The notes beneath the pieces were generated by a model. It searched no databases, was not told the DNA's origin, and saw only the letters and a list, made by a program, of their open reading frames with translations. Below, in pieces: positions 6,446-27,229 of a DNA stretch of 64,000 nucleotides. The position numbers and the translations under genes were made by a program. This DNA comes from Bacteroidales bacterium. Its GTDB lineage: Bacteria > Bacteroidota > Bacteroidia > Bacteroidales > JAIPAP01. Every line of letters begins with the position of its first letter. Within the stretch, counting starts at the first letter, position 1. The stretch is from the NCBI GenBank assembly GCA_021740045.1, contig JAIPAP010000002.1, positions 13,391 to 77,390 on the forward strand, given 5' to 3'.

Positions 6446-7126
6446 CTACTGCTCTTCTTCCATGTTAATCAAATTGTGGTTCATGGCGTATTTCATCAAC
6501 CCCACAATAGAGCGGGTGCTGGTTTTGGTGAAGATATTTTTGCGATGGGTTTCCACCGTACGCTCACTTATAAAGAGCATATCGGCAATTTGCTCATTGG
6601 TATATTCGCGGGCTATCAGGTTAAGAATTTCGGTTTCACGGGGTGTTAGTTTTACCACATTGGGTTCAATGGTGGTAATGGCATCCTGACTGTTATATAT
6701 ATTACCCATGATAATGGTTTGCACATCACGGCTGAGGTATTTTTCCTTGCGGGCTACTGCACTTATGGCGTCAACTAGTTCATTCATATTGGTGCTTTTG
6801 AGCACATATCCCGAGGCACCGGCTTCGATCATCTTCGATATCAGGGTACTGTCATCATGCATGGTGAGCGCCAATACATATATGTTTGGATAGGCATTCC
6901 TTATTTGATAAGTTAATTCTATGCCCGACATTTTTGGCATGTTGATGTCGGCCAGTACCACATCCACTGCATGTTCGGTTAAAAACTTCAAAGCCTCATT
7001 GCCCGAGGTAACTCCCCCAACAATTTCCACGCGTTCATCCTCGGCAAATAAGGATCGTAAACCATCAATGATCAGTTGGTGATCATCAACGATAAGAAGA
7101 TTTATCGGTAAATTGTGTTCACTCAT
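6446..7126 (-). CDS. NarL/LuxR-family response regulator
   Basis: Receiver domain (LIVDDHQLIIDGL, ADINMPKMSG) plus a LuxR-type HTH (LTPRETEILNLIAREYTNEQIADMLFISERTVETHRKNI). Confidence 0.9.
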   Translation of the reverse strand: MSEHNLPINLLIVDDHQLIIDGLRSLFAEDERVEIVGGVTSGNEALKFLTEHAVDVVLADINMPKMSGIELTYQIRNAYPNIYVLALTMHDDSTLISKMIEAGASGYVLKSTNMNELVDAISAVARKEKYLSRDVQTIIMGNIYNSQDAITTIEPNVVKLTPRETEILNLIAREYTNEQIADMLFISERTVETHRKNIFTKTSTRSIVGLMKYAMNHNLINMEEEQ

Positions 7127-7135
7127 AATCCAATA

Positions 7136-9329: not shown

Positions 9330-10802
9330 ATGAAGACAAACATTACGAGACTCACAACTTTCATTTTAGGTATTCTGTTTATAGGAATTGCATCAAATAC
9401 CCTGGCGCAGAAGGATTGGCATTTCGAACAAGTAACCGATGATAACATCAGGGATAAGGTATCGGGGCAGGCTTTTAAAGTAGACGCCGATAACAATCTT
9501 CACTTGGTTTTCGAAAAGTTCGGCGAATCATCACACGATATCTATTACACAAAAAGGCCTTGTGGCGAATACTGGACACAGCCCGTTAAAGTTAATGAAG
9601 AAAACACCAATGCATTTAAGCCGGCGCTGGCAGTAGACAGCCAGAACGTACCCTACGTATTTTATGAAATTGAACATCCTGACAGTATCGACCTTCATCT
9701 GGCTCATATGGAAGATAACAATTGGAATTATGAAGTAATAGTGGATCAACCTAAGTTTAATTTAATGCCCTCGATCGACATTGACGATCAGGGTAAAATC
9801 CACCTGGCCTGGATCGGCCCCGATTCTAAAGACTCCATGCGGGTTTGGTACGCCCATAATGATATGGGAATATGGATGATTCAGAAGCTTGGATTTACTA
9901 TCCCCAACAAGATTGGTGATCCGAAAAGCGGCCCCGAATGTAATGGCGCTAACCCCTGCATTCGCGCTAACAGCGAACAAATTGCCCATATTGTATATCG
10001 CGGTGGCGCCCCTGGATTTATGTACATCCATCACGCCTATAATACCATGCCTTTTGGTATGATGTGGGAAGAAGAGATCGTGGAAACCGAAAATCTTAAT
10101 GATTTTTATGGCATGATCGAGATCGATGATGAGGATAACATCCACTTCGCTGCCAGTGGCAACGACGGTGATGGATTCCCTGATTGGGTTTATTATCGCC
10201 AATTCAGCGATGGTAACTGGAGTGAACCCGAGAAGGTAAATAATATTGTGAACGGCCCGCTCACCTCCATGACCCTCGACAAAGAAGGAAATGCACATAT
10301 TACTTATGATGAGCTCGGTGGCTATATACTCATGGGCAATATCGGTTATGCCAACAATATAGGCGGTACATTCTCCGACACCCTTCTGCTGATCGATAGT
10401 CTCTCAATGAGTGGTGTGGTCCAGGTTGATGGTAATATGAATGTTCATGTTGCGCATCATTGGGGAGAAACCAATGATGAAAACGAAATCAGAGTAATAT
10501 CGGATGGCTACTGTGGTGGAACCACCGGCATTGAAGAGCAGGCTATTAAAGAGCAAGGTTTTGCCATTTATCCCAACCCTGCCGATGAATTTGCTACCCT
10601 GCGCTTTAACAGCGAAGCCAGTAATAAAATTGCCGTGCGGGTTTATAACCTTACCGGAAAGCTTGTAAAAGAGCTCAGCTCACAAAAACTGATGCAAAAA
10701 AATACGGTTACCATAGATATAAGCTCATTAACCAAGGGCATTTATATGGTGCAGTTGACTAATGGTGATCAGTCATACACAAATAAGTTATTGGTTAAGT
10801 AG
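9330..10802 (+). CDS. T9SS cargo protein with a beta-propeller-like sevenfold repeat
   Basis: Signal peptide. A short strand motif recurs about seven times (HLVFE, YVFYE, IHLAWIG, AHIVYRG, IHFAASG, AHITYDE, VHVAHHW). C-terminus is IYPNPADEFATLRF...GIYMVQL...LLVK. Confidence 0.8.
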   Translation: MKTNITRLTTFILGILFIGIASNTLAQKDWHFEQVTDDNIRDKVSGQAFKVDADNNLHLVFEKFGESSHDIYYTKRPCGEYWTQPVKVNEENTNAFKPALAVDSQNVPYVFYEIEHPDSIDLHLAHMEDNNWNYEVIVDQPKFNLMPSIDIDDQGKIHLAWIGPDSKDSMRVWYAHNDMGIWMIQKLGFTIPNKIGDPKSGPECNGANPCIRANSEQIAHIVYRGGAPGFMYIHHAYNTMPFGMMWEEEIVETENLNDFYGMIEIDDEDNIHFAASGNDGDGFPDWVYYRQFSDGNWSEPEKVNNIVNGPLTSMTLDKEGNAHITYDELGGYILMGNIGYANNIGGTFSDTLLLIDSLSMSGVVQVDGNMNVHVAHHWGETNDENEIRVISDGYCGGTTGIEEQAIKEQGFAIYPNPADEFATLRFNSEASNKIAVRVYNLTGKLVKELSSQKLMQKNTVTIDISSLTKGIYMVQLTNGDQSYTNKLLVK

Positions 10803-10832
10803 TAATTGGAGTTTACCTTTTTTAAGCAGAAC

Positions 10833-10864
10833 GACCGGGGGTTTTGGAACTCCCGGTCTTTTTT
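10833..10864 (+). terminator. rho-independent terminator
   Basis: Stem gaccggg / cccggtc followed by a T6 run, 30 nt after the stop at 10802. Confidence 0.6.
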
Positions 10865-10877
10865 AAAAGCAAAATCT

Positions 10878-12548
10878 ATGAAAAAGATCAGTCTTTTATT
10901 CATAATTTTTATTTCGGGACTTTTATCACTAGGCCAATCCCAACGTATGGTGATACTCGAGCATTTTACCGGAGCTTCCTGCACATTTTGCGCTGTTTAC
11001 AATCCCATGGTAGAAGAACTGCTCAATAATCACCCCGACAAAATCACTTCTATTAAATACCAGTTCTTTCTCCCCGACCCCATGTATCATCACTGTAATG
11101 AAGATATTGATGCCAGGTTGGAATACTATAATAATCAGGCTGTCCCGCACAGTATATTGGATGGTAACTTTTTCGACGATCATCCGGCCAACCTTTCCGG
11201 TGAGATTATCCTGGAGCGCTACAATGAGCCTTCGCCTTTTAACATACAGCCTCATCATGAATTATCACCCGATAATGATTCGGTTTATATCGATATGCTA
11301 ATTGAGGCCACAGCCCCCGTTAATGGTAATTTATCGGCATATATTGCCGTTGTGGAAGAGCATATCCATTTTGAAGAGCCGCCCGGACAAAACGGTGAAA
11401 CGGATTTTTATAATGTATTGAAGAAGATGTTACCGACCTCCCAGGGCAAGACGCTGCAGCAAGATTTCCAGGAAGGAGACTATGTGCTATTACAAACCCA
11501 ATGGAAAACCGAGAACTTTTATAATATCGAAAAATTGGAGGTTATTGGTTTTGTGCAGGATATGGGAACCCGGGAAATCCATCAAACGGTTGTTAGCAGC
11601 GATCAGCCCATTACACCCCTTTTTAAAAACGACGTGGAATTGATACAAACTGACCATGTTCCGGCGATCTATTGTGATCATTTGCAACCCCGGATTGTTA
11701 TCAGGAACAATGGCTCACAAACATTGAATAAGCTACAAATCAGTGCATCGATCAACAGGGAAGAGGTGTTTTCAAAAAACTGGACCGGAAATCTCAAATC
11801 ATTAGAAACAACAAGCATTCAACTCGATCCCCTGGAATTTATCCCACAGGAGCAAAACGAACTGTTAATCAGCCTCGCATCTCCTAATAATAGTAACGAT
11901 GGGTATTCAGCCAACAATGAACAGCTATTCGCCATAAAGAACGCTCCCAGGGCTTCTCAATCCATCGTACTCATGATCAAAACCGATAACAATCCCGGCG
12001 AAACTTCATGGAAGCTTATCAACAGCATGGAAGAAATCATTGAGTCCGGGGGGCCATATGATCAAGCAGGCACTTTATACTCACATAGATTAAGTTTTAA
12101 TGATGAGGGTTGTTATACCATTGTCATCTCCGATTCGGCCGGCAACGGATTTAACAGCGAAAACGGCAACGGATTTTTTCTTATCGTAGACGATTCAGGT
12201 AATCCCATGCATGAAGGAACTTTTATCAGCAACTCCATAGGTTTGCCCGTACACATGACCAGTGCCGCTACCATTAAGGAGTCGCAATCAAACACCTTAG
12301 TGCAGGTGTATCCGAATCCCGTAAGAGAGAATGTAACACTGAACATAAATGGTAACATGACCGGCCCGGTTATGATTACCTTATATAATATGTATGGAAA
12401 AAAAGTTCGACAATATGAAAAGAAAAACCTCTATAATGGGATGATAAACCTTAAACTGGACCACTTACAAGCCGGTTATTATATCCTTCAAATTACTGAT
12501 GAAAAAGGGAACACCTATACCACCGAAATGATCAAAGCAAAACCCTGA
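10878..12548 (+). CDS. T9SS cargo protein with an Omp28-related/thioredoxin-fold N-terminal region
   Basis: The track ORF begins at 10806, but that start overlaps the upstream terminator. MKKISLLFIIFISGLLSLGQ at 10878 is a proper signal peptide. The segment MVILEHFTGASCTFCAVYNP resembles the Omp28-related family. C-terminus is VYPNPVRENVTLNI...GYYILQI. Confidence 0.7.
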   Translation: MKKISLLFIIFISGLLSLGQSQRMVILEHFTGASCTFCAVYNPMVEELLNNHPDKITSIKYQFFLPDPMYHHCNEDIDARLEYYNNQAVPHSILDGNFFDDHPANLSGEIILERYNEPSPFNIQPHHELSPDNDSVYIDMLIEATAPVNGNLSAYIAVVEEHIHFEEPPGQNGETDFYNVLKKMLPTSQGKTLQQDFQEGDYVLLQTQWKTENFYNIEKLEVIGFVQDMGTREIHQTVVSSDQPITPLFKNDVELIQTDHVPAIYCDHLQPRIVIRNNGSQTLNKLQISASINREEVFSKNWTGNLKSLETTSIQLDPLEFIPQEQNELLISLASPNNSNDGYSANNEQLFAIKNAPRASQSIVLMIKTDNNPGETSWKLINSMEEIIESGGPYDQAGTLYSHRLSFNDEGCYTIVISDSAGNGFNSENGNGFFLIVDDSGNPMHEGTFISNSIGLPVHMTSAATIKESQSNTLVQVYPNPVRENVTLNINGNMTGPVMITLYNMYGKKVRQYEKKNLYNGMINLKLDHLQAGYYILQITDEKGNTYTTEMIKAKP

Positions 12549-13265
12549 TCAGCCCTTATCGCTGATCTTGACCAGGGCTTCACGGTCATGAATGGTGAAA
12601 TGATTATTGGACAGTTCAATAATGCGGGCATCTTTAAATTCCTTTAGAATACGTATGGCGCTTTCCTTACTCATGGAAGTTAAATCAGCAATGTCTTGCC
12701 TGCTTAATGGTGTTTCAAAACTGGTAGCGTTATGAATTTCATCGGCAAGGTATAATAATGCATCGGCAATACGCCCCGACATGTGCTTTTGGGTAAGGTT
12801 GATGAATTTTTTAAAGTTTTGTATTCCCTGTATATTATTCTTTTTAAGGATGTTAAGGGCCAGGTTCTGGTTCATTTTCATGATCTTCTCCAGGGAATTC
12901 ACATCTATAAAGCACGTTTGCACATCAGTTAAGGCCGCTACTGAAAAATGATGAATAAAATCAACATACATTCCCGGCCCACCAATAATGGCGTTTTCCC
13001 TGGCCACTTTAATAAGAAGGTTTTTTTTGTTAAGCCCCTCGATATATATTTTTACCATACCCTGCAGAATGCAGGCAATGTGGGTAAGCGCTGTACCTTG
13101 CTTAAACATAATTTCACCGGCGTTAAATTCAACTTCATGCCGGTTCTCATTCAGTATTTCAAGTTGTTCGGGTGATAATCCCCTAAAGATACTTTGAGTT
13201 AAACAGCATGTAGTACATGCCATCTTTCTTGAATATTTCGCCATTGAATCTCTCTTTTCCGCCAC
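12549..13265 (-). CDS. Crp/Fnr-family transcriptional regulator with an N-terminal Cys cluster
   Basis: cNMP-binding-like beta-roll and a C-terminal HTH (RQDIADLTSMSKESAIRILKEF). Cysteines sit at C17, C20, C21 and C118 (numbered from the track start), reminiscent of FNR iron-sulfur ligands. Confidence 0.85.
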   Translation of the reverse strand: MAEKRDSMAKYSRKMACTTCCLTQSIFRGLSPEQLEILNENRHEVEFNAGEIMFKQGTALTHIACILQGMVKIYIEGLNKKNLLIKVARENAIIGGPGMYVDFIHHFSVAALTDVQTCFIDVNSLEKIMKMNQNLALNILKKNNIQGIQNFKKFINLTQKHMSGRIADALLYLADEIHNATSFETPLSRQDIADLTSMSKESAIRILKEFKDARIIELSNNHFTIHDREALVKISDKG

Positions 13266-13481: not shown

Positions 13482-14543
13482 ATGATGACCAAAAAACTTA
13501 CAATCATGAAACGATTTAATTTACTAGCACTTATGATGGCCATATTCATTGGCTCGGCAATTATTTTTGCAGGATGTACAAAGGAAGGACCGCAAGGCCC
13601 TCCAGGTAAGGACGGCGAAGACGGTGTTGACGGCGAAGACGGCACTGCCGGCTGTATTGAATGCCATGATGATTCACAAACGATCTTTGCAGCTGAAAAT
13701 CAATGGGCAGCATCGGTACATGCCACCGGAGGCAATTTTGAGCGTAACGGTACAGATTGTGCGCCATGTCACACCAGCCAGGGATTTCTGGAAGTTATCG
13801 AAACCGGAGCTATGGAAACAGAAGCCCCCATTAGCAATCCAAATCCCCAAAACTGTTATACCTGTCATAATATCCATGACACATACACACCCGAAGATTG
13901 GAGCTTTACAACTTCTGCTCCGGTTGAATTCTGGATTAACGGTGATGGGTATGATATGGGCAAATCGAACGTGTGTGCAGGATGCCACCAGCCCAGAGTT
14001 CCTGATCCACTACCAACACCCGGGCAGGGCGGTAATGTAACCATCAATTCACCCTATTGGGGTCCGCACCATGGCCCGCAAGCAGCTATGCTGGTGGGAA
14101 CCGGTGGTTACGAAGTAGGAAGTGGCTACGACAACTCGGCCCATACCAATGCCCTTGAGAATGGATGTGTAACATGCCACATGGCGGAGCCCTATGGTAC
14201 TCAGGCAGGCGGTCATACCATGGGAATGACTTATGCGTATCATGGCCATGGCGTGGTGAATAAGGCTGGCTGCACAGCTTGCCACACCGATCCGGATGCC
14301 TTGGACGCTAAGATTGAAAGCACTAAAGAGGACATTGACGAAAAACTGGCCGAACTACGCAGTAAGCTTCTCGAACGTGGAGTATTGGATAGCAGCGACC
14401 ACGTAGTGCCCGGTGAAATGAGCATGGATGAAGCAGGCGGTGTGTTCAACTACCTTTATGTTATGGAAGATCGCAGCGGTGGTAGCCATAATTTCAACTA
14501 TGCCTTTTCCCTACTGAATAACAGTCTTGAATCATTGAATTAA
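13482..14543 (+). CDS. hexahaem c-type cytochrome lipoprotein with a collagen-like Gly-X-Y tract
   Basis: Lipobox IIFAGC. GPQGPPGKDGEDGVDGEDGTAG follows it immediately. Six CXXCH motifs (CIECH, CAPCH, CYTCH, CAGCH, CVTCH, CTACH). The alternative start MKRFNLL at 13506 gives a cleaner signal peptide. Confidence 0.85.
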   Translation: MMTKKLTIMKRFNLLALMMAIFIGSAIIFAGCTKEGPQGPPGKDGEDGVDGEDGTAGCIECHDDSQTIFAAENQWAASVHATGGNFERNGTDCAPCHTSQGFLEVIETGAMETEAPISNPNPQNCYTCHNIHDTYTPEDWSFTTSAPVEFWINGDGYDMGKSNVCAGCHQPRVPDPLPTPGQGGNVTINSPYWGPHHGPQAAMLVGTGGYEVGSGYDNSAHTNALENGCVTCHMAEPYGTQAGGHTMGMTYAYHGHGVVNKAGCTACHTDPDALDAKIESTKEDIDEKLAELRSKLLERGVLDSSDHVVPGEMSMDEAGGVFNYLYVMEDRSGGSHNFNYAFSLLNNSLESLN

Positions 14544-14563
14544 TAATGAATGGAATCAAAGTG

Positions 14564-14595
14564 CGAAAAAAGGTTTCTGTAGAGGCCTTTTTTCG
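14564..14595 (+). terminator. hairpin terminator after the hexahaem gene
   Basis: 10-bp stem cgaaaaaagg / ccttttttcg with the T-run embedded in the 3-prime arm, 21 nt after the stop. Confidence 0.5.
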
Positions 14596-14697
14596 TGCTT
14601 CATGTACTAAGTCAATATATGATGAAACAATTTGTATGTAATTATCCTTTATATTAATGTACAATGTTTCTTCACTTAATTAAAAAACGACGAGCGA

Positions 14698-15090
14698 ATG
14701 AAAGGTTGGAAAATATTCAGAATAGGAATCATATTCATGATAGTGGCAGCTTTTACATCATGCGAATATGAATTTATCGAGCCGCCTCAACCCGATTTTA
14801 ACGGCGAGGATAGTGTTTTAAGCTTTTCCGATAAAATTCTCCCCATTTTTACGGATGGTGATAACTGTACATCATGCCACAACAGCGGCGGGACCCCACC
14901 CGATCTTACAGCGGGCAATGCCTATAACAGCATTATGAATAATAATCTGGTTGACACGGCTGCACCCGAGCAAAGTGTACTTTATGATTATGTAAGACCG
15001 GATACCGATAGCCACGACTGGAAAGCGTATACCTCAACCGAAGCTCAGCTGGTTCTTGAATGGATCAAACAAGGAGCTAAGAATAATTAA
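14698..15090 (+). CDS. small monohaem c-type cytochrome lipoprotein
   Basis: Signal peptide ending in the lipobox AFTSC, followed by an acidic stretch EYEFIEPPQPDFNGED. There is a single CTSCH motif. Confidence 0.7.
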   Translation: MKGWKIFRIGIIFMIVAAFTSCEYEFIEPPQPDFNGEDSVLSFSDKILPIFTDGDNCTSCHNSGGTPPDLTAGNAYNSIMNNNLVDTAAPEQSVLYDYVRPDTDSHDWKAYTSTEAQLVLEWIKQGAKNN

Positions 15091-15986
15091 TGTCGGAACG
15101 AAAAAATATGAGGATGATGAAGAATAAAATAGTATGGCTTGTGTTGATCGGTTTGATCATTACAACAACTGCTTTTGCACAAGATGAACAAAAACGCCAG
15201 GATCCACCGGTAAGAGCACCCTTCGAAAGCGGTGTGCTTATCGACAATCAAACGGTTCAGATACCTTATAAAAACACCCTTGAATTTGTTATCGAACACC
15301 GTTTTGGAACTATTGATAACGGCTTAACCGATATGTACGGTCTTTATGCACCGTCGAATATCAGGTTGGGGCTGAATTACAGCATTACCGACGATATTAT
15401 GGTAGGGGCTGGAATTACCAAAGATCGTAAACTTACCGACCTGCGCGGTAAATATAGTATTATAAAGCAAACCCGGAATAACAGCATTCCGGTGTCGGTT
15501 TCCTTTTACGGAAACATGGCAATTGATGGAAGGGAAGATGCTTACTTTGGCGAACAATATGAGTTTACCAACCGCTTCTCCTATTTTTCCCAATTGATCT
15601 TTTCCCATAAATTCGATTACCGTTTCTCATTCCAGGTGGCCCCGAGCTTTTCGCATATTAATGCAGTGGACTCGGCTTACGAGCATGATAAACTTGCCGT
15701 CTCGCTGAGTGGCCGGGCACGTTTTAGCCCTCAGTCATCTATTATCGTAAACTACGATATTCCATTGCACATTGAAAGCATGCAGGAACACGCTACCTTA
15801 AATATAAAGCCGAAACCAAACCTCGGTGTAGGATGGGAGGTATCCACCAGCACCCACGTTTTCCAGATCTTTGTGGGAACGGCCGATGCTATGATGCCCC
15901 AGTACAATATTATGTTTAACCGTAATGACTGGACTGATGGAGAGATCATGCTCGGATTTAACATTACGCGATTATGGAGTTTCTAG
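15090..15986 (+). CDS. predicted outer-membrane beta-barrel protein
   Basis: TAATG stop/start overlap with the upstream gene. Signal peptide (VWLVLIGLIITTTAFAQ). Alternating amphipathic strands throughout. C-terminal GFNITRLWSF ends in Phe, a beta-signal-like terminus. The start may be an internal Met (MRMMKNK). Confidence 0.6.
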   Translation: MSERKNMRMMKNKIVWLVLIGLIITTTAFAQDEQKRQDPPVRAPFESGVLIDNQTVQIPYKNTLEFVIEHRFGTIDNGLTDMYGLYAPSNIRLGLNYSITDDIMVGAGITKDRKLTDLRGKYSIIKQTRNNSIPVSVSFYGNMAIDGREDAYFGEQYEFTNRFSYFSQLIFSHKFDYRFSFQVAPSFSHINAVDSAYEHDKLAVSLSGRARFSPQSSIIVNYDIPLHIESMQEHATLNIKPKPNLGVGWEVSTSTHVFQIFVGTADAMMPQYNIMFNRNDWTDGEIMLGFNITRLWSF

Positions 15987-16023
15987 CAAATAATTTTGTT
16001 AAAAATATAAAAGAGGAGAGATT

Positions 16024-16440
16024 ATGAAGAAGAATATGTTATCGGTACTGCTTGTGAGTTTTGCCGCCATTATGCTTATGGCGTTTACAGCACCGCAGGA
16101 TAAGAAAAAAGGCGAGCCTTGGGATATCCCTGAAAAATATCAGAAAATGGAAAATCCCCATAAAGGTGATAAAGGCATGGTTCGTATAGGAAAAATGCTT
16201 TATTCCAAGCATTGCAAATCATGCCACGGTAACCGTGGACAAGGTGACGGACCGCGAGCCAGGCAACTGGAAACCTTCCCCGGGGACTTCACTTCCGAGG
16301 AATTCCAGGAACGCAAAGCCGGTGTATTGTACTATCAGTCATTCATCGGACGTGATGAGATGCCCAACTTCGAAAAGGAAATCCCTGTTGAAGAAGATCG
16401 CTGGGCTATTATTAACTACTTAAGAACATTCGGAGAATAA
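16024..16440 (+). CDS. periplasmic monohaem class I cytochrome c (paralog 1)
   Basis: Signal peptide, CKSCHG haem motif, distal Met candidate in GRDEMPNF, and an RBS-like aggagag upstream. Confidence 0.85.
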   Translation: MKKNMLSVLLVSFAAIMLMAFTAPQDKKKGEPWDIPEKYQKMENPHKGDKGMVRIGKMLYSKHCKSCHGNRGQGDGPRARQLETFPGDFTSEEFQERKAGVLYYQSFIGRDEMPNFEKEIPVEEDRWAIINYLRTFGE

Positions 16441-16458
16441 ACCTATAATGAATGTTAA

Positions 16459-16524
16459 AACCCTGTTCGCACCCGGTTTGGAGTAAGTGATTATTCCTCT
16501 GTAAGGCATGGTGCGCACAGGGTT
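16459..16524 (+). terminator. long-loop hairpin downstream of the cytochrome c gene
   Basis: 15-bp arms aaccctgttcgcacc / ggtgcgcacagggtt (1 mismatch) with a ~36-nt loop, followed by gtttatt. Confidence 0.35.
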
Positions 16525-16557
16525 GTTTATTAAGATGATAACTTTAAATTAACTACC

Positions 16558-17520
16558 ATGAGCGGGCGAAATCTGATAATTTTTCTTTCGATCTCAATAA
16601 CATTACTACTAGGTACTTCCGCAGCTCCGGCCCAGGAACAAGATACAACCGGCTTACCCGAAAACGTGAAAGCTAATGAAGAATGCCTGAGCTGCCATGG
16701 CAATGAATATTATTCATACTTTAACCGGTGGCTCGACAGGAATGTACGCGACCGGATGAATCCTTATTATATCATCGATTCATCCAAATTCTATCATTCC
16801 AACCATAGCACCTTTAAATGTATCGATTGCCATTCTTATGAATATGATACTTTCCCCCACCCGGGCGGATTAAGGTTGGAACCCCAGTACACATGCATGG
16901 ACTGCCATGCATGGGGGGAGGAATGGGAAAAATTCAATTTCGAGACCATCCAGAAAGAATTCCAGGAAAGCGTCCATTACCAGGAACACAATCAATCATT
17001 CGATTGCTGGATGTGTCATGAGCCACACTCCTATAAATTAACGGCTCGTAAATCCGACACCATTAAAAATATTGTGGCTTACAACAATTCGATCTGTTTA
17101 AGCTGTCATTCCAATACAGATAAATACCAACTAATTGCCGAAAAAGAAAATCCCAACCTTATTGAAAGCCACGATTGGTTACCCAATCAGCGATTGCATT
17201 TTAATAATGTTCGTTGCCTCGAGTGTCATGCTAAAAAAGTAGACACCCTGATGGTGGCTCATAATATACGGCCCAAAGAAGAAGCTGTGCGGAAATGCGC
17301 AGAATGTCATTCGAGGAATTCCATGCTTATGGCTAGTTTATACAAATATAAATCAAAACAGGCCCGGCAAGAATATGGTTTTCTGAATGCGATTATGATG
17401 AGTGAATCATTTGTTATAGGAGCCAACAGAAACCAAATCCTCAATACAATCAGTCTGGTCATTTTCGGACTTGTAATACTCGGGATTGTAATTCATACTA
17501 TCTTGCGAATTATAAACTAA
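16558..17520 (+). CDS. heptahaem c-type cytochrome with a C-terminal membrane anchor
   Basis: Signal peptide. Seven CXXCH motifs (CLSCH, CIDCH, CMDCH, CWMCH, CLSCH, CLECH, CAECH). C-terminal hydrophobic helix ISLVIFGLVILGIVIHTIL. Confidence 0.85.
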   Translation: MSGRNLIIFLSISITLLLGTSAAPAQEQDTTGLPENVKANEECLSCHGNEYYSYFNRWLDRNVRDRMNPYYIIDSSKFYHSNHSTFKCIDCHSYEYDTFPHPGGLRLEPQYTCMDCHAWGEEWEKFNFETIQKEFQESVHYQEHNQSFDCWMCHEPHSYKLTARKSDTIKNIVAYNNSICLSCHSNTDKYQLIAEKENPNLIESHDWLPNQRLHFNNVRCLECHAKKVDTLMVAHNIRPKEEAVRKCAECHSRNSMLMASLYKYKSKQARQEYGFLNAIMMSESFVIGANRNQILNTISLVIFGLVILGIVIHTILRIIN

Positions 17521-17539
17521 ACTGAAGATAAAAGAAGAA

Positions 17540-18175
17540 ATGGGAAAAAAGATCTATCATTATCCGTTTTGGATTCGCCTTTGGCACTGGGTTAATGCAG
17601 TATTATGTATCCTTCTGATCTTCTCCGGCTTGAGTATGCAATATTCTGATCCGCAAAACTACTTTATTTCTTTCGATGTGGCGGTATCAATGCATAATGT
17701 TTCGGGAATATTATTAACTCTCGGATACATAGGCTTTTTGATCGGTAATATCAGAACATCCAATGGCAGTTATTACAAAATTAACTGGTCTACCATCGGG
17801 CGCGATCTGATAAAACAGCTTAGGTACTACATGTTTGGGATGTTTAGAAAGGAAAAGACACCTTTCCCGATCAATGATAAGCGAAAATTGAATCCTTTGC
17901 AAAAAGTAACCTATGATGGTGTTATGTACCTTCTGCTTCCCTTATTGATTATAACCGGCTGGGCATTGCTCTTTCCGGAGATAATACTTGACCGTTTGTT
18001 TGGGGTAAGCGGGTTGCAATTAAACGACCTGGTGCATATCATTACCGGGTTCTTGGTTTCCATCTTTTTGGTTGTCCATATCTACTTCAGCACAATTGGA
18101 GCAACGCCTTCAGCACATTTTGAGGCAATGATCAATGGATATCATAAGATGCATGATGAACCGGAAAGCCACTAA
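17540..18175 (+). CDS. membrane b-type cytochrome (Ni/Fe-hydrogenase/FdnI/PhsC-like cytochrome b family)
   Basis: Four to five TM helices with conserved His residues. The N-terminal motif FWIRLWHWVNAVLCILLIFSGL is typical of this family. The gene starts 19 nt after the heptahaem gene. Confidence 0.7.
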   Translation: MGKKIYHYPFWIRLWHWVNAVLCILLIFSGLSMQYSDPQNYFISFDVAVSMHNVSGILLTLGYIGFLIGNIRTSNGSYYKINWSTIGRDLIKQLRYYMFGMFRKEKTPFPINDKRKLNPLQKVTYDGVMYLLLPLLIITGWALLFPEIILDRLFGVSGLQLNDLVHIITGFLVSIFLVVHIYFSTIGATPSAHFEAMINGYHKMHDEPESH

Positions 18176-18276
18176 CTAGTTACAGCAACAGAAGGACAGC
18201 TATCAGTAAGAGACTCAAGAATCACACTATATTAAGCGGAAGGAATGAATAGCTCATAAACTAAAACCGAAAAACC

Positions 18277-19779
18277 ATGAAATTACCCAAGGCCTTTTAC
18301 AACTGGACTTCCCTGTCGGGAGCAACTTTAGCAATGATAAGCTTTTTTATCATTGTCTTCTTGATTTTGATATCGATGATTTATTCCGGCGGTAGTTCTT
18401 ATCTTGGGTTGTTCACTTACATTATTTTACCGGTATTTCTTGTTATTGGGTTAATTCTTATTCCCATCGGGATGATAAGGAAGACCAAAAAAGATAAGAA
18501 AACCGCTCCTGCACCTGAACAAAAAAAGTGGCCGATTCTCAACCTGAACGATACCCGTTACAGGAATGCTCTGATAGTTTTCTCCTTCGGAACGCTCATT
18601 TTCCTGATGGTATCGGCCATTGGGAGTTACGAGGCTTATCATTATACCGAATCGGTTGAATTTTGCGGCAAAGTGTGCCACGAAGTGATGAAGCCCGAAT
18701 ATATAGCTTATCAGAATTCACCACATGCCAGGGTAGCATGCGTAGATTGCCATGTTGGGCCGGGAGCCGGATGGTATGTAAAATCCAAATTATCGGGTTT
18801 ATACCAGGTATATGCGGTTACAACCGGTAATTACCCCAAGCCCATACCCACGCCGGTTGAAAATTTACGCCCGGCCAGAGAAACCTGTGAAGAATGCCAT
18901 TGGCCTCAAAAATTTTATTCCCGTAAGCTAAAATTCCGCAAACACTATTTGGCTGACACTAAAAATACCGAGTGGGATATTACTATGGAAATGAAAATAG
19001 GTTCCAATTATGAGGCATTAGGACTTAAGGAGGGAATTCACTGGCACATCAACCCGGATGTTAAAATCGAATACATTGCCGCTGATGACAAACGGGAAGT
19101 AATACCATGGGTACGCTATACCGATACTAAAACAGGCGAATCGGTTATTTATCAAAGCCCCGATACCACCATTAACGCCAAGCAGGTAGAGCCATCAAAA
19201 ATCCGCACCATGGATTGTATTGATTGCCATAACCGGCCATCGCATAATTATCATCCTCCGCAGGAATATTTCGATAATGCCATTACCGCCGGAAAAGTGC
19301 CCAAAGAATTACCCGATATTAAAGTAGCTGCTATGGGCGTTTTAAGCGAAGATTACCCAACCACCGATAGCGCCATGGAATTTATCGAAAGCGAAATTAA
19401 TACCTATTACGAGTTATTGTACCCTGAAGTATACGACACTGCCAAAGCCCTGATCGATCAGGCCATAGAAGCAACAAAGGAAGAATTCAAAAAGAACGTA
19501 TTCCCGGGCATGAAGGTTAAATGGAATAAATACCCCAATCACATCGGGCATCTTAACTCCGAAGGATGTGTTCGTTGCCATGACGATAAGCATGTTTCCA
19601 TGAATGGCCGTACCATTTCACGTGATTGTAATTCATGCCATGACATTGTTGCCCAGGGAACACCCGGTAAAATGGAACAAGCGTCGGCCTTGGAAACCCT
19701 CGAATTCAAACACCCCATTGATATAGGTGAGGCCTGGAGAGAAACTCACTGTGCTGATTGTCATAAAGACTTGTATTAA
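18277..19779 (+). CDS. membrane-anchored multihaem cytochrome with a NapC/NirT-like region (ImcH-like architecture)
   Basis: Two to three N-terminal TM helices. The NapC/NirT-like signature is CGKVCHEVMKPEYIAYQNSPHARVACVDCH. There are six CXXCH motifs (CVDCH, CEECH, CIDCH, CVRCH, CNSCH, CADCH) plus one CX3CH (CGKVCH). Confidence 0.8.
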   Translation: MKLPKAFYNWTSLSGATLAMISFFIIVFLILISMIYSGGSSYLGLFTYIILPVFLVIGLILIPIGMIRKTKKDKKTAPAPEQKKWPILNLNDTRYRNALIVFSFGTLIFLMVSAIGSYEAYHYTESVEFCGKVCHEVMKPEYIAYQNSPHARVACVDCHVGPGAGWYVKSKLSGLYQVYAVTTGNYPKPIPTPVENLRPARETCEECHWPQKFYSRKLKFRKHYLADTKNTEWDITMEMKIGSNYEALGLKEGIHWHINPDVKIEYIAADDKREVIPWVRYTDTKTGESVIYQSPDTTINAKQVEPSKIRTMDCIDCHNRPSHNYHPPQEYFDNAITAGKVPKELPDIKVAAMGVLSEDYPTTDSAMEFIESEINTYYELLYPEVYDTAKALIDQAIEATKEEFKKNVFPGMKVKWNKYPNHIGHLNSEGCVRCHDDKHVSMNGRTISRDCNSCHDIVAQGTPGKMEQASALETLEFKHPIDIGEAWRETHCADCHKDLY

Positions 19780-19949
19780 ATCCTATTAACATATTTTCCA
19801 TGTATACATGCGGCTTGACTGATAAGCAAAGGCTAATCTATTTTTAAATTCATAGTGCATATTGCTGAGATAAATGTGGTATTATTTTGATTTTTAAACA
19901 CCTTGTTTTACTTTAGTGAATAATTAGAACCCTAAAAAAAGGAGCAACT

Positions 19950-20366
19950 ATGAAAAGAATTTTAGCATTATTAATGGTTTTCAGCATGGCCATTATATTT
20001 TTAATGGCATTTACATTTCCACAAGATCAAAAAGAAGGCAAACCCTGGGATATTCCTGAAAAATACAAAAAGATGGAAAATCCGCATAAGGGTGACAAAC
20101 GATCGGTACGAATCGGCAAGATGCTTTATTCCAAGCATTGTAAATCGTGCCATGGCAACAAAGGAGCCGGTGACGGCCCGCGTGCCAAGCAACTGGAAAC
20201 ACAACCCAACGACTTTGGCACTAAAGAATTCCAGGAGCAAAAAGCCGGTGTGTTGTATTATAAATCATTTATCGGCCGTGGGGAAATGCCCAATTTCGAA
20301 AAGGAAATTCCCGTTGAGGAAGACCGTTGGGCTATTATCAATTACATGAGAACATTTGGTAAATAA
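19950..20366 (+). CDS. periplasmic monohaem class I cytochrome c (paralog 2)
   Basis: Same length (138 aa) as the 16024-16440 product. Roughly four-fifths of mature-region residues are identical by eye. CKSCHG motif, with aaggag upstream. Confidence 0.85.
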   Translation: MKRILALLMVFSMAIIFLMAFTFPQDQKEGKPWDIPEKYKKMENPHKGDKRSVRIGKMLYSKHCKSCHGNKGAGDGPRAKQLETQPNDFGTKEFQEQKAGVLYYKSFIGRGEMPNFEKEIPVEEDRWAIINYMRTFGK

Positions 20367-20376
20367 AGTCCTCACC

Positions 20377-20438
20377 CCCCTTTCGTTGCCAGAATACTTT
20401 TAAAAGACCTTCTTTTAACAGATCGGTTGCGAAAGGGG
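20377..20438 (+). terminator. long-loop hairpin downstream of cytochrome c paralog 2
   Basis: Arms cccctttcg / cgaaagggg with a ~45-nt loop, followed by ttgtttattt. It sits in the same place as the hairpin after paralog 1. Confidence 0.3.
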
Positions 20439-20892
20439 TTGTTTATTTCAACCACCTCATTACTCCAGCCTTCACTTATAGATGAAAACAAATTTTGACT
20501 TTGCGAAAGAGTTAGGAGCGAATATTCTGGGAAGTTGCCGCGTATTTGATTAGGAATGAGTATGAAAAGCCCGTCCATATGAATACGGCAAAAACGCTGG
20601 CTGGCGTGCGTTTGGAGCGAATTACATAAATCGTGAGTAATTGTCCTAACCTATCGGTTTGCAGCGGCTTAACGCGTGCCCGGCAAATTTCCTCGTTTGT
20701 AACGAGATTTTATTACACACCGCTAAAACCGGCATGATTTGCACATTGCAGGCAGCATTTAGCTTTATCTCATCACAGACGAGTGATATAGAAAGGCACA
20801 CGATGCTATCGCGCGCCAGCAGCCGGGTTGCAAAATTAAAAATGGCAAGGATTTGTATAGACAAAAGTTGAAAAGATCAAAGCTGATTTCGC

Positions 20893-21108
20893 AACCACTC
20901 ATTCCACCAATTAACCACTCAACCACTCAACCACTCAACCATTCAACCACTCAACCACTCAACCAATCAACCAATTAACCACTCAACCAATCAACCACTC
21001 AACCATTCAACCAATCAACCATTCAACCAATCAACCATTCAACCATTCAACCAATCAACCAATTAACCAATCAACCAATCAACCACTCAACCATTCCACC
21101 AATCAACC
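20893..21108 (+). repeat. 8-bp tandem repeat array, about 27 units of A(A/C/T)TCAACC
   Basis: Direct reading shows a strictly 8-nt register from 20901 to 21108. The plus strand has no G at all from 20892 to 21131. Confidence 0.95.
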
Positions 21109-21307
21109 ATACAATACATCACCTCTTTTCAGCATTATTAAAAACCAATACCAAAAATACCTTGCTTTTTTCCACATTTGTTTTTACTTTTAACCATTGA
21201 AATGCCTGATGGTTGTATTTGGTTGTTTGTGTTGCTATAGAATTCTTGTTTTCAGGCCTTTCCCGGTGTGGAAAAACAGCAAACAAAATAATTAAACTCG
21301 TAAAATC

Positions 21308-22765
21308 ATGAAAACCAAGTCCCTTTTTTCGCTACTGATCGGCCTGAGTATAATTCACCTTGCATTTACCCAAGAGCTTCACCAATGGCATGAACCTGTT
21401 ATGCTTACTGATTCTTTATCGGATAACCATGATCCCTGCATCAGCACCTTTAACTCCATTACCCCTGCTCAAAGCATAATGGCGTGGGAGAAAGTGATCA
21501 ATGAAAACACAACAGCCATTTGCATACGTGAACTCACAGAAATGCCCCCAACCGATACGGTTCTCTATGAAGATAATGTCCATTACCTGAACCCGGAGAT
21601 CATGAAACCTTATCATGGATTTCCCAAATCGGAGGTGATGTATTTATTGATTTATAACCGGGTTGAAGGAGAAGATCACAGCCTTGCATACTTTGAAGCT
21701 TATGATGACGGCACCTATTCGGAACCCACCGAAATTGCTTCTGCAATTGGCGATTCATTGGCATTTTCAGCGGCAAATGAAATTGGAATAGCTTACAGCA
21801 AGCAAGAGGAAATACGCTATGCTCCTTTGCTGGAAGAAAAATCGAAAGACCTGTATTTTGGCGAAGTCCAGGTAGTGGATACCGGGAATTGCTTCTCTCC
21901 ATTCCTTTCAATGGATTATAAGTTATGCTGGCTTAAAGCTGTGGATGATAGTATGGCTATTATGCATTCAGCATACAGTTTTTATCAGGATGAATGGTCG
22001 GAGCCCGAAGAAGTGTATAGAGGCCAAGAAATAACTGGGTTTGGCGGAAATAAGAAAGGAGCTTTTACAAGCCTTATTCATTGGTATGAACCGGCCGAGC
22101 CATACAGCAAGGTCTTTTATTATGGACTATTGAGCGGTGAACTTCACGAAATGGAAATACCGGAAAACACCGCTAAAAGTTACCCAACTGTAATCACCTA
22201 TCCAATGATCACCACCGGTTTTACTATTGTTGATGCCCTTATTGGCTTTGTCGTCGATTCGGGGGATAATCCTGAAATCTTTGCCAATAATCAAATGTAT
22301 GGCAGTTATCCCGAAATAAACATCTCCAATTATGCCGGGATGGATACCAAACCGGAAATGTTCCTGGGCGAAATAGGTCCATACTGGATGGAAATTCTTT
22401 GCACCTGGGAATCCTACCGGAACGGGCATTGGGTGATTATGAAGAATTACTTATATGCTGCATTAGGCAGCGTGGAGGAAACCGAAAGTACTGCCGGGGA
22501 TTTCAAATTGCACCCCAACCCAATGGATCATTCTGCTACTGTTAGTTATGAGCTGAACAATCCCGGCCCTGTTCGTATAAGCATTTACGATCAACGCGGA
22601 AAAATAATCAAAACACTGATTAATGAGGAAAAGGATAGCGGCCATCATCAAATCACATGGGACAGGACAAGTGCTGATGGAACTGATGTGCCGCCGGGTA
22701 TTTATTTGATTAGATTTAATACCGGGAGCCAATCTGCCTCCAAAAAACTAATAGTCATCCATTAA
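21308..22765 (+). CDS. T9SS cargo protein, tandem paralog 1 of 5
   Basis: Signal peptide MKTKSLFSLLIGLSIIHLAFTQ. Conserved family motifs (W.EPV.LTD..SDN..P, NISNY.G.DTKPE, WES.RNGHW). C-terminal HPNPMDHSATVSY...GIYLIRF. Confidence 0.85.
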   Translation: MKTKSLFSLLIGLSIIHLAFTQELHQWHEPVMLTDSLSDNHDPCISTFNSITPAQSIMAWEKVINENTTAICIRELTEMPPTDTVLYEDNVHYLNPEIMKPYHGFPKSEVMYLLIYNRVEGEDHSLAYFEAYDDGTYSEPTEIASAIGDSLAFSAANEIGIAYSKQEEIRYAPLLEEKSKDLYFGEVQVVDTGNCFSPFLSMDYKLCWLKAVDDSMAIMHSAYSFYQDEWSEPEEVYRGQEITGFGGNKKGAFTSLIHWYEPAEPYSKVFYYGLLSGELHEMEIPENTAKSYPTVITYPMITTGFTIVDALIGFVVDSGDNPEIFANNQMYGSYPEINISNYAGMDTKPEMFLGEIGPYWMEILCTWESYRNGHWVIMKNYLYAALGSVEETESTAGDFKLHPNPMDHSATVSYELNNPGPVRISIYDQRGKIIKTLINEEKDSGHHQITWDRTSADGTDVPPGIYLIRFNTGSQSASKKLIVIH

Positions 22766-22821
22766 AGGGAACATAGCCATTATGAAATTCACCAAATTGC
22801 GATAACCAAAATACATCAACC

Positions 22822-24276
22822 ATGAAAACTAAAAACATTTTTATGCTACTGATCAGCCTTAGTTTAATTCACCTTGCATTCGCGCAGGAATTTTACGAAT
22901 GGCAGGAACCGGTCATGCTTACCGATGCATCATCGGATAACTTCAACCCTTATATCAGCCATTTATACGCATCAAATGATCAAAAAACGATCATGGCATG
23001 GGAAAAGATCATCAATGAAAACACTACCGCCGTTTGCATGCGGGAATTGATGGAAATGACACCGGTAGACACTTTTTTGTATGAAGAAAATGTGCATTAC
23101 CTGAATCCTGAGATCATGAAACCATCATGGTTTTTTGATGGGTCGGAAATTCTCTATTTGCTTTTTTATAATAAGGTTGAAAGCAATACGCATAGTCTTA
23201 ACTATATAACTTTTTATGAAGACGGCACCTATTCTCCCCCTACCCCAATGGCCTCCAGTACAGAGGATTCACTGCATTTTTCGGTAGCCGATGGATTAGG
23301 CGTTTCATGGAATGAGGGAGGAGGCATTTATTTCTCCCGGGTTTTTAATAATGGGCCAAAAGGCATTCAATTGGGAAGCATCGATCAGCTCGACTCGGTG
23401 AATTGCAGCAACCCTGTCCTTACAAACCTTTTCCACTGTGCCTGGCTAAAACCCAACGGGAACAATCTTAGCATCTACTCTGCCGAGTATAACCCCTGGG
23501 ATCAATTGTGGAACGACCCGGTGGAAGTCCATACAGCTTCGGAAATAAAAGGATTTGGTGGAAGCACAAAAGCCTTTATGTATGATGCGTTGTTTTGGTT
23601 TGATCATAATGAGCCTTACAACAGGGCTTTTTATTATGATCTGCAATATGATGAGGTCATTGAAGTAGATAAGCCCTATAATACCGATAAAAGCTACCCT
23701 ACAGCCCTTGATCATCCCATTATGGTTACTGCTTTTGATATTCCCCAAACCCTTGTCTCATTTGTAGCTGACTCAGGGAATAATCCTGAGATTTATGCCA
23801 ATACCTATAATGGAGCGAATGAATATGTGAATATTTCGAATGATCCGGGCCTGGATACCAAACCAGAATTATACATCGGTGAAACGGGAGGTTATTGGAT
23901 GAAAATCCACTGCGTATGGGAATCGAAAAATAACGGGCATAGTGTATTGATGGGGAATTATATGAAGGTGATGATGGGAAGTACTAATGAAAACCAATCC
24001 CAACATAATGACATGAGCATCCACCCCAACCCCATGAGCAATTTAACAACCATTGAATACGCACTAAAGGAAAAAGGTGAGGTTTCCATTCAAATCTATG
24101 ATCAGCACGGAAAGCTAATCGACCATCTTGTCAATGAAGAAAAGGCGGCCGGAAGCCATCAAGTAAGATGGAATGGAACATCGATCAATGGAACACCGGT
24201 ACCGGCGGGGGTGTATTTGGTAAAGATAGAAACAAAAGGAATTACCGAAACTGAAAAATTAATCATCAACAAATAA
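22822..24276 (+). CDS. T9SS cargo protein, tandem paralog 2 of 5
   Basis: Closest to paralog 1 along the body of the protein. CTD is HPNPMSNLTTIEYALKEKGEVSIQIYDQHGKLIDHL. Confidence 0.85.
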   Translation: MKTKNIFMLLISLSLIHLAFAQEFYEWQEPVMLTDASSDNFNPYISHLYASNDQKTIMAWEKIINENTTAVCMRELMEMTPVDTFLYEENVHYLNPEIMKPSWFFDGSEILYLLFYNKVESNTHSLNYITFYEDGTYSPPTPMASSTEDSLHFSVADGLGVSWNEGGGIYFSRVFNNGPKGIQLGSIDQLDSVNCSNPVLTNLFHCAWLKPNGNNLSIYSAEYNPWDQLWNDPVEVHTASEIKGFGGSTKAFMYDALFWFDHNEPYNRAFYYDLQYDEVIEVDKPYNTDKSYPTALDHPIMVTAFDIPQTLVSFVADSGNNPEIYANTYNGANEYVNISNDPGLDTKPELYIGETGGYWMKIHCVWESKNNGHSVLMGNYMKVMMGSTNENQSQHNDMSIHPNPMSNLTTIEYALKEKGEVSIQIYDQHGKLIDHLVNEEKAAGSHQVRWNGTSINGTPVPAGVYLVKIETKGITETEKLIINK

Positions 24277-24300
24277 TGATCAATCCAAAAAAACTGCCCT

Positions 24301-25746: not shown

Positions 25747-25769
25747 TTACTGATCCAAAAAACAAAGTC

Positions 25770-27200: not shown

Positions 27201-27229
27201 TCTTCAAACCAGTATAAAAAAAATACATC

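Follow-up and report, generated by a model that had tools for sequence, protein, structure and literature searches.

An FNR-associated multihaem cytochrome island with a small DUF5777 barrel as a candidate electron-export system of Bacteroidales

In this study, we analysed 64,000 nucleotides (hereafter the window) of a Bacteroidales metagenome-assembled genome (MAG; GCA_021740045.1, contig JAIPAP010000002.1, positions 13,391-77,390 of the forward strand), which carries an island of eight genes, here called g1 to g8, for cytochromes and an outer-membrane barrel. The cluster is widespread in Bacteroidales, unannotated, and built of relatives of four proteins of extracellular electron transfer (EET) systems together with a small outer-membrane barrel. 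We tentatively propose that the island is quite possibly an anaerobic branch under FNR-type regulation, leading from menaquinol to outer-membrane cytochromes and exporting electrons to an external acceptor. That ImcH-, CbcL-, OcwA- and FoxE/PccH-type parts come together in one cluster suggests export as the direction of flow, with iron, manganese or similar partners outside the cell; ImcH is known only from reducers. The most likely acceptors are Fe(III) or Mn(IV) minerals or chelates, humics and electrodes, that is, acceptors that do not enter the cell or that have a high potential. Our analysis establishes the gene content, the haem counts, the family relationships, the synteny, the fold of the barrel as a model and the lack of a classical reductase next to the core. 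The direction of flow, the identity of the acceptor, the membrane face of g1 and g2 and the way of crossing the outer membrane are what we infer rather than observe.

Composition and conservation of the island

A sequence-only reading of the window had described eight co-directional genes at 13482-20366 with 22 CXXCH motifs and one CX3CH. Our recount agreed exactly, both in the coordinates of the eight plus-strand open reading frames (ORFs; Table 1) and in the motifs, with 6, 1, 0, 1, 7, 0, 6 and 1 CXXCH in g1 to g8, respectively, and the single CX3CH (CGKVCH) at residue 130 of g7. Outside the island, the other stop-free stretches of 100 aa or more in the window (22,239 aa in all) contained no CXXCH, so the clustering of haem motifs goes far beyond chance. 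Domain, transmembrane and signal-peptide calls also bore out the idea of a dedicated cytochrome cluster whose products are distributed over inner membrane, periplasm and outer membrane.

Relatives of the g3 barrel, which belongs to the DUF5777 family, occurred in at least 564 species (one genome per species). Synteny was read in the best 80 loci, and features were counted in the 54 that had enough flank. The full core, in the order g1, g2, g3, class I cytochrome c, g5 and g6, was present in 51 of these 54 loci, and a class I cytochrome c was counted in 46 of them. The dominant order in the best 80 loci was g1-g2-g3-(c)-g5-g6, and a second arrangement was g2-g3-c-g5-g6-g1. An ImcH-type gene was found in only 19 loci (of 54) and at variable positions, which makes g7 and g8 accessory rather than core. 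Thus, the eight-gene block suggested from the single sequence held up as a six-part core, whereas its ImcH-like gene and second monohaem gene did not belong to the conserved part. The hosts included Lentimicrobiaceae, Prolixibacteraceae and Bacteroidales MAGs, as well as three Carboxylicivirga strains in culture; cultured carriers are C. mesophila JCM 18290 (locus L076) and strains A043 and RSCT41.

A Crp/Fnr regulator adjoined the core in 45 of the 54 loci. In the window its gene is divergent from the island; its matches to the NCBIfam FnrL, FixK and Fnr models were weak. Among 64 homologs, Cys118 was present in all (100%), Cys17 and Cys20 in 95% and Cys65 in 77%.

Inner-membrane and periplasmic cytochromes

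The accessory protein g7 (500 aa) has predicted transmembrane helices at residues 17-35, 49-67 and 98-116, followed by the CX3CH motif and six CX2CH motifs, and its NapC/NirT/NrfH-like region matched Pfam Cytochrom_NNT (E 6.7e-15) and NrfH (2J7A_C, E 2e-5). Members of the ImcH family have been described as having a length of about 495-519 aa, three transmembrane helices at the N-terminus, a CX3CH next to the transmembrane region, six CX2CH and homology to NapC/NirT (PMC6295460, PMC4251993). By sequence, g7 therefore has every published ImcH feature and is likened to ImcH on the basis of that description. Its homologs number thousands at about 60% identity, and one of them, at 63%, is from Melioribacteraceae, where ImcH homologs have been reported (PMC6295460, PMC4251993). 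The family is further marked by homology to GSU3259 and by a requirement for high-potential acceptors, for which the Melioribacteraceae match makes g7 an indirect candidate. So far, ImcH homologs have come only from Fe(III) or other metal reducers, whereas CbcL/MtoC-type proteins are found in both iron reducers and iron oxidisers (PMC6295460).

The likeness to CbcL is less complete. The heptahaem g5, which falls in the Pfam c7/c3 multihaem families, was always followed by the cytochrome b gene g6 in the related loci examined. In the island the two are separate genes with a gap of 19 nt, and g6 scored 178.8 bits against the NCBIfam PhsC-type cytochrome b model, below its cutoff of 204. In one relative (L015), g5 and g6 are replaced by a single fused 551-aa protein with seven haems and a cytochrome b domain, which suggests that g5/g6 is a split CbcL-like quinol module. 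The CbcL/MtoC/MtrH family is defined by a multihaem cytochrome c and a HydC/FdnI-type cytochrome b in one polypeptide; since g5 and g6 lie on two genes, they would work like CbcL and are not classed as members of that family. Hence, in the comparison with ImcH and CbcL that had been suggested earlier, the published features held and the single-polypeptide architecture of CbcL did not. In four other loci (L037, L043, L062 and L072), genes for an NrfC-like Tat Fe-S protein, an NrfD-like membrane protein and an unassigned secreted protein of ~300 aa lie between g6 and g1; with this insertion the cluster would have a quinol module of a third type. On the periplasmic side, the two class I cytochromes c, g4 and g8, share 79% identity, in line with their supposed paralogy.

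The hexahaem lipoprotein and a possible reductase function

In its public record (MCF8301751.1), g1 is annotated as 'hypothetical protein'. GXY repeats follow its lipobox Cys32, and all 71 homologs carry such triplets (3-11 each) and six haem motifs, the last of which is CX4CH in 22. The best solved match of the family profile was OcwA of Thermincola potens (6I5B, E 6.7e-10), with NrfA and octahaem nitrite reductases ranking after it. The OcwA match extended over residues 300-495 of that protein; in g1 it took in the final three haem motifs together with the C-terminal helices, the N-terminal half of g1 being unaligned. Three C-terminal helices (271-298, 315-330 and 338-352) were seen in the structural model, and Foldseek with this model again ranked OcwA first and nitrite reductases next. 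Over profile and Foldseek searches together, the only solved relatives were OcwA, NrfA, octahaem nitrite reductases and MccA. A Pfam match to MtrC/MtrF domain II/IV was also recorded (35.5 bits, cutoff 30). Judged from the shared haem-core region and the C-terminal three-helix bundle, g1 is predicted to have an NrfA/OcwA-superfamily fold, with a weak match at fold level.

The first reading had regarded the island as pure electron wiring with no catalytic subunit. Part of this was right: Pfam and NCBIfam domain calls revealed no molybdopterin, copper or Fe-S subunit among the island genes, and a direct count found no CXXCK in any island protein. The general claim, on the other hand, is not established, because g1 falls in the NrfA/OcwA/MccA superfamily. 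OcwA itself belongs structurally to the NrfA/c554/MccA group, carries CXXCH haems and reduces nitrite and hydroxylamine, and members of the superfamily with catalytic CXXCH haems exist (PMC6703420). The placement of g1 in this superfamily makes a periplasmic soluble-substrate reductase a serious rival, even if we consider it rather unlikely. In such a system g1 would reduce nitrite, hydroxylamine, NO, sulfite, polythionate or chelated metal, the barrel would be the outer-membrane entry channel, g2, g4 and g8 would be carriers, and g5/g6 (or the NrfCD-like module or ImcH) would be quinol dehydrogenases. The restriction of the solved relatives to OcwA, NrfA, octahaem nitrite reductases and MccA fits this possibility, as do the NrfC/NrfD-like pair beside g1 in four relatives, which is reminiscent of the Nrf and Mcc systems, and the barrel itself, whose 12 strands and conserved N-terminal segment resemble small substrate channels of the COG4313, Tsx and FadL types.

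Several features of g1 and its surroundings nevertheless argue against a soluble substrate. An NrfA-type catalytic haem has CXXCK or is otherwise open-sited, with a Tyr/His/Arg pocket. Six non-motif His residues are conserved in the alignment of the g1 family and could be enough for bis-His ligation of all six haems, which would leave no obvious open site; because of these six His and the lack of CXXCK, g1 looks like an electron carrier. A collagen-like stalk, which all g1 homologs have, is not usual in a periplasmic enzyme, and small anions do not normally depend on a channel of their own. Haem lipoprotein-barrel pairs recur in other DUF5777 loci that lack a multihaem enzyme, and ImcH is known only from metal reducers. 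In favour of export, the cluster does not sit regularly beside a recognisable terminal reductase: when ORFs of at least 320 aa lying no more than 4 kb from the core were clustered across the 80 loci, Pfam analysis of 100 representatives showed no molybdopterin, NrfA, copper or sirohaem reductase family that recurred.

The location of the lipoproteins bears on the same question. The published Bacteroidota surface-export signal (LES) is C-X-K-(D/E)2-X, or a polar residue and at least two acidic residues after the lipidated Cys, and may not be the consensus of this lineage; in C. canimorsus, 'KD' alone is insufficient for surface export of a lipoprotein. Counted from the lipid Cys, g1 reads C-T-K-E-G, a partial match that places K at +3 but has a single acidic residue; g2 reads C-E-Y-E-F, which is no match. 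Surface exposure of both lipoproteins is thus unsupported by the published export signal, and with incomplete signals g1 and g2 could face the periplasm, as a periplasmic reductase would require of g1.

The monohaem lipoprotein and the direction of flow

Exactly one haem motif was present in each of the 78 g2 homologs, CX2CH in 54 and CX4CH in 24; an apparent set of homologs without haem proved to be an artefact of searching for CX2CH only, as these homologs carry CX4CH. In the alignment, the CX4CH type went with a conserved Met and the CX2CH type with a conserved His, and the former combination is consistent with a higher-potential His/Met haem. The haem-site subtypes of g2 and g1 across the 80 loci (L001-L080) correlated only loosely with gene order and may tune redox potential.

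The family profile of g2 matched FoxE (5MAB) over the whole domain (profile positions 41-127, E 1.6e-4), and also hydrazine synthase alpha and 4RLR, which we take to be PccH, a Geobacter cytochrome needed for electron uptake. Individual Pfam matches were weak, with one family member matching the Pfam PccH model. The hallmark of g2 is F..I.PIF...C..CH...WI.QGA.NN, and its WI..GA.N part occurs in both FoxE domains. Taken together, the domain-wide profile match and the shared motifs identify g2, at the level of sequence, as a FoxE/PccH/PSCyt1-type cytochrome c domain.

A FoxE/PccH-type g2 combined with class I cytochromes makes an inward flow conceivable, by oxidation of a donor in the periplasm or outside the cell, namely Fe(II), a cathode or a partner cell. 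In that case g2 and g3 would behave like a split Cyc2/FoxE and pass electrons through g4 and g8 to an oxidase or nitrate system, or uphill through g5/g6 to quinones. Besides the homology of g2 to FoxE, an Fe(II) oxidase, and to 4RLR, such a direction would suit g4 and g8, which are of the type that feeds cbb3 oxidases, the occurrence of CbcL/MtoC-type proteins in iron oxidisers, and the putative His/Met haem in nearly a third of the g2 homologs. Still, we regard inward flow as improbable, as ImcH homologs have so far been seen only in Fe(III) reducers, and an FNR-like regulator in largely fermentative or anaerobic hosts is more in keeping with an electron sink than with lithotrophy. Among the neighbouring ORFs of the 80 loci, no genes for an oxidase or for carbon fixation were linked to the cluster, and an OcwA-like hexahaem protein is not needed in the known Cyc2 and FoxE pathways.

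The DUF5777 barrel and its lipoprotein partner

The third gene of the island encodes a protein with a signal peptide and invariant C-terminal W296/F298, which scored 267 bits (cutoff 23.1) against the Pfam family DUF5777, described as 'membrane bound beta barrel'. The AlphaFold2 model of g3 (predicted local distance difference test, pLDDT, 83) has 12 strands, and a Foldseek search of the PDB returned generic outer-membrane barrels only, the best with a TM-score of about 0.5 (a 12-stranded COG4313 channel and FapF). The public record (MCF8301753.1, 'DUF5777 family beta-barrel protein', 290 aa), which like that of g1 belongs to an 80-kb contig, implies a start at 15114. The TAATG overlap between g2 and g3 (15090) that had been pointed out is present in the sequence but depends on the choice of start, and the gap is at most 24 nt either way.

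Since 12 strands are too few to sheath a multihaem cytochrome, a wire of the type found in MtrCAB and other porin-cytochrome complexes (PCCs) is not the mechanism, and crossing would have to use either one haem placed at the pore or a substrate reaching a haem through the pore. The original wording of a trans-envelope conduit is weakened by this and by the incomplete export signals of g1 and g2.

The DUF5777 family comprises 1,795 clusters at 50% identity. Longer members had been considered as cytochrome fusions, and this was rejected, none having a haem motif; they carry a long non-cytochrome N-terminal extension (LysM-like by eye), a tandem double barrel or uncharacterised extensions. When strand parity was used to place the invariant His70, His189 and His256 of the barrel in the lumen or on the lipid face, no coherent site emerged.

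Evidence that g2 and g3 belong together came from other DUF5777 loci. L015, L037 and L074 contain a second, paralogous DUF5777 locus with its own PSCyt1-like monohaem lipoprotein, a YceI protein and an OB-fold protein. In three distant loci (L081, L082 and L083), a small lipoprotein gene lies directly upstream of the barrel gene, overlapping its start in L082, and these lipoproteins share the pattern F..I.PI...C..CH...W...GA.N with CX2CH, CX4CH or longer spacing. A fourth distant member lies on a 2.6-kb contig with only YceI visible upstream. As a g2-like gene precedes the barrel in all of the paralogous and distant loci whose upstream DNA could be read, the lipoprotein-barrel pair appears to be a general module, and the barrel travels with cytochromes rather than being part of an unrelated transport family. 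This pair is the element of the system that is most likely truly new. A bolder idea, which may hold but which we consider doubtful, is that g2-g3 is a minimal two-component outer-membrane redox gate, with one FoxE-type haem at a 12-stranded pore; it would be a split analogue of Cyc2 that evolved separately in Bacteroidota and was coupled in Bacteroidales to an OcwA-like stalked hexahaem protein and CbcL/ImcH-type quinol oxidases. As a separate observation, the paralogous and distant loci often contain YceI, an OB-fold (tRNA_anti-like) protein or DoxX, and no multihaem cytochromes.

The presence of these non-respiratory genes in other DUF5777 loci could also speak for an envelope redox role without energy conservation, such as reductive iron acquisition with Fe(II) entering through the barrel, or oxidant detoxification. 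TonB-dependent receptors and HmuY lipoproteins near the cluster in a few loci, and hosts that are mostly described as fermenters, would be compatible with this explanation. We find it very improbable. The core has 16 haem motifs, a number that rises to 22 plus one CX3CH when the accessory genes are counted, and one or two dedicated quinol dehydrogenases, all of which would be a large outlay for assimilation. No iron-transport genes are consistently linked to the cluster, and FNR-type control fits respiration.

Proposed route and its significance

In the electron-export scheme that we favour, quinol would be oxidised by the split CbcL-like g5/g6 and, where present, also by the ImcH-type g7 or the NrfCD-like module. 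The soluble monohaem proteins g4 and g8 would carry the electrons across the periplasm to the FoxE-type g2 and the g3 barrel, which would form a two-gene outer-membrane unit functionally comparable to a split Cyc2 cytochrome-porin, and the OcwA-like g1 on its collagen-like stalk would be the terminal reductase of the acceptor.

A number of points weigh against this scheme. The barrel lacks a haem motif and has only 12 strands in its model, and to our knowledge no conduit works with a haem-free 12-stranded barrel. No fusion of DUF5777 to a cytochrome was found among the top 150 family representatives. The model of g1 has a moderate pLDDT of 72 and its Foldseek match to OcwA is weak (E 6.6e-3, TM-score 0.40), g1 lies in a superfamily where catalytic CXXCH haems exist, and neither g1 nor g2 has the full published surface-export signal. 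Finally, we found no characterised relative of the cluster in the literature on multihaem proteins or EET in Bacteroidota, Bacteroidales or Prolixibacteraceae, and no mention of DUF5777 in the literature searched, which agrees with the initial impression that no such system had been characterised in this lineage. The nearest reports are metagenomic mentions of imcH and multihaem genes in Prolixibacteraceae MAGs and one report on Lentimicrobium, which concerns a giant PCC cluster of another kind.

Sediments, digesters, aquifers and bioelectrochemical reactors all harbour abundant Bacteroidales, which are usually modelled as fermenters. If electron export is true, the cluster would enable them to respire with iron, manganese, humics, electrodes or partner cells as the outlet, and the metagenomic assignment of carbon and metal cycling would change. 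If the redox-gate idea is true, it would be a previously unrecognised EET route in a phylum regarded mainly as fermentative. The mechanistic question is whether a 12-stranded barrel and a one-haem lipoprotein can pass electrons across the outer membrane and, if not, what the role of the pair is; the occurrence of the cluster in cultured Carboxylicivirga strains makes this question directly testable.

Neighbouring genes and other features

Clustering of the ORFs around the 80 loci revealed some recurrent neighbours: cytochrome c biogenesis genes (ResB/CcsBA-like, in 19 and 8 loci), a c554-like tetrahaem protein and 19-haem proteins. In L005, L039, L050, L064 and L067, ORFs with 19 CXXCH and a 166-aa c554-like tetrahaem protein lie between the core and the ImcH-type gene (e.g., L067 12735-16000 and 17679-18179). 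A NarJ/TorD-like chaperone (Pfam Nitrate_red_del) stood beside the Crp/Fnr regulator in seven Lentimicrobium-type loci (e.g., L038 4644-5282); it was considered as a sign of a Mo reductase and rejected, there being no molybdoenzyme gene nearby. The TonB-dependent receptor and HmuY haem-binding lipoprotein genes that occur in a few loci lie within 4 kb of the core and might supply haem or iron for the cytochromes.

Within the window, sorting domains of the type IX secretion system (T9SS) were found at the C-termini of proteins encoded by genes flanking the island, in agreement with the previous description of the genome as T9SS-bearing. Five tandem paralogous proteins of ~480 aa with such domains are encoded at 21308-28672; the last ~85 residues of three of them (22822-24276, 24301-25746 and 25770-27200) are almost identical while their N-terminal parts are divergent, which suggests recent duplication or gene conversion of T9SS cargo paralogs. 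Two more proteins with C-terminal sorting domains are encoded upstream of the island (9330-12548), and upstream of these cargo genes, on the minus strand, lie a TPR-containing histidine kinase (HisKA_3/HATPase_c) and an adjoining 226-aa ORF (6446-9148). The 940 bp after the last cytochrome gene (20367-21307) contain no ORF longer than 72 aa and gave no Rfam or tRNA match; scans of the whole window with Rfam and for tRNAs likewise returned no matches. Matches in a sigma-70 promoter and terminator scan were no commoner than in shuffled sequence, the sigma-70 model being unsuited to Bacteroidota promoters.

Table 1. Features of the cytochrome island and of related loci. Coordinates of the first nine rows are positions in the window; those of the other rows refer to the locus named.
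Feature	Position	Strand	Evidence
Crp/Fnr-family regulator, FNR-like Cys pattern	12549..13265	-	Pfam HTH_Crp_2 and cNMP_binding
g1, hexahaem lipoprotein with collagen-like GXY stalk, predicted OcwA/NrfA-superfamily fold	13482..14543	+	six CXXCH, lipobox Cys32
g2, monohaem lipoprotein, predicted FoxE/PccH/PSCyt1-type haem domain	14698..15090	+	lipobox Cys22, one CXXCH
g3, DUF5777 outer-membrane beta-barrel	15090..15986	+	Pfam PF19089, E 1.3e-79; 12 strands in model
g4, periplasmic class I monohaem cytochrome c	16024..16440	+	Pfam Cytochrom_C, Cytochrome_CBB3; signal peptide
g5, heptahaem cytochrome c with signal peptide and C-terminal membrane anchor	16558..17520	+	seven CXXCH; transmembrane helix 298-316
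g6, dihaem-type cytochrome b (FdnI/HydC/PhsC family)	17540..18175	+	Pfam Ni_hydr_CYTB, E 2.8e-27
g7, ImcH-family inner-membrane heptahaem protein (by sequence), accessory	18277..19779	+	published ImcH features
g8, second class I monohaem cytochrome c, g4 paralog	19950..20366	+	79% identity to g4; same Pfam families
Paralogous DUF5777 locus	L015 15841-17201	-	
Paralogous DUF5777 locus	L037 18428-20800	-	
Paralogous DUF5777 locus	L074 4751-7252	+	
Distant DUF5777 locus	L081 5545-7996		
Distant DUF5777 locus	L082 4109-6143		
Distant DUF5777 locus	L083 1265-2597		
NrfC/NrfD-like insertion	L037 13069-16262		
NrfC/NrfD-like insertion	L043 13067-16360		
NrfC/NrfD-like insertion	L062 6542-9807		
NrfC/NrfD-like insertion	L072 13168-16385		

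Comparison with known systems

Among the known outer-membrane conduits, MtrCAB and the Geobacter PCCs resemble the island in having a lipoprotein multihaem cytochrome gene near an outer-membrane barrel gene (g1 is within ~550 nt of g3, with only g2 between them) together with periplasmic cytochromes. Their barrels, however, have at least 14 and typically 20-26 strands, those of roughly 20-26 strands surrounding a decahaem wire, whereas the DUF5777 barrel has 12 in its model and no partner able to thread it. A DUF5777 barrel would be missed by published PCC searches, which ask for homology to MtrB, OmbB or Ext proteins and for no fewer than 14 strands, and current gene-based electroactivity screens would miss the cluster. 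Cyc2, set beside g2-g3 by architecture and not by sequence, shares with it the combination of one haem and one small outer-membrane barrel, the contiguity of the genes or domains, and a link to class I periplasmic cytochromes. In contrast, Cyc2 is a single polypeptide in which an N-terminal monohaem domain is fused to a barrel of about 16-17 strands (about 17 in one published account), while g2-g3 consists of two polypeptides, with a FoxE-type lipoprotein and 12 strands. On the grounds of barrel size and fusion, the island thus stands outside both the MtrCAB/PCC and the Cyc2 families.

Both domains of FoxE of Rhodobacter ferrooxidans SW2 share with g2 the haem-domain hallmark F..I.P(I/L)F...C..CH...WI..GA.N, and PccH of Geobacter is linked to g2 by the matches to 4RLR and the Pfam PccH family. 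FoxE is a soluble dihaem protein encoded in the foxEYZ operon, whereas g2 has a single domain, is lipid-anchored and is always paired with a barrel. The NrfA-NrfBCD and MccA-MccCD systems are comparable in the superfamily fold predicted for g1 and in the NrfC/NrfD-like pair beside g1 in some relatives. Against them, g1 has neither CXXCK nor the special motif of the MccA type, and it has six haems, a lipid anchor and a stalk, accompanied by a dedicated barrel and a haem lipoprotein.

On the inner-membrane side, the comparison with Geobacter sulfurreducens was made through published descriptions: g7 is like ImcH (GSU3259) in its length of ~500 aa, transmembrane helices, CX3CH and six CX2CH and NapC/NirT-like region, and g5/g6 is like CbcL (GSU0274) in joining a multihaem cytochrome c to an FdnI/HydC-type cytochrome b, although CbcL is one protein with nine haems and g5/g6 is two genes with seven. 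The downstream partners are entirely different, as the island has no Ppc triheme proteins and no Omc or Ext complexes. The alternative quinol modules in different relatives (ImcH, CbcL-like and NrfCD-like) resemble the potential-tuned branches of Geobacter. At the other end of the proposed chain, OcwA (6I5B), the nonahaem surface Fe(III) reductase of Thermincola potens whose open-site haems are haems 2 and 5, is the best profile and fold match to g1, and it holds the terminal position in an electron-export chain that we propose for g1. With six haems instead of nine, a lipid anchor, a collagen-like stalk and a diderm host, g1 would be a shortened, lipidated and stalked relative of OcwA, and the system as a whole would work like the known electron-export chains.

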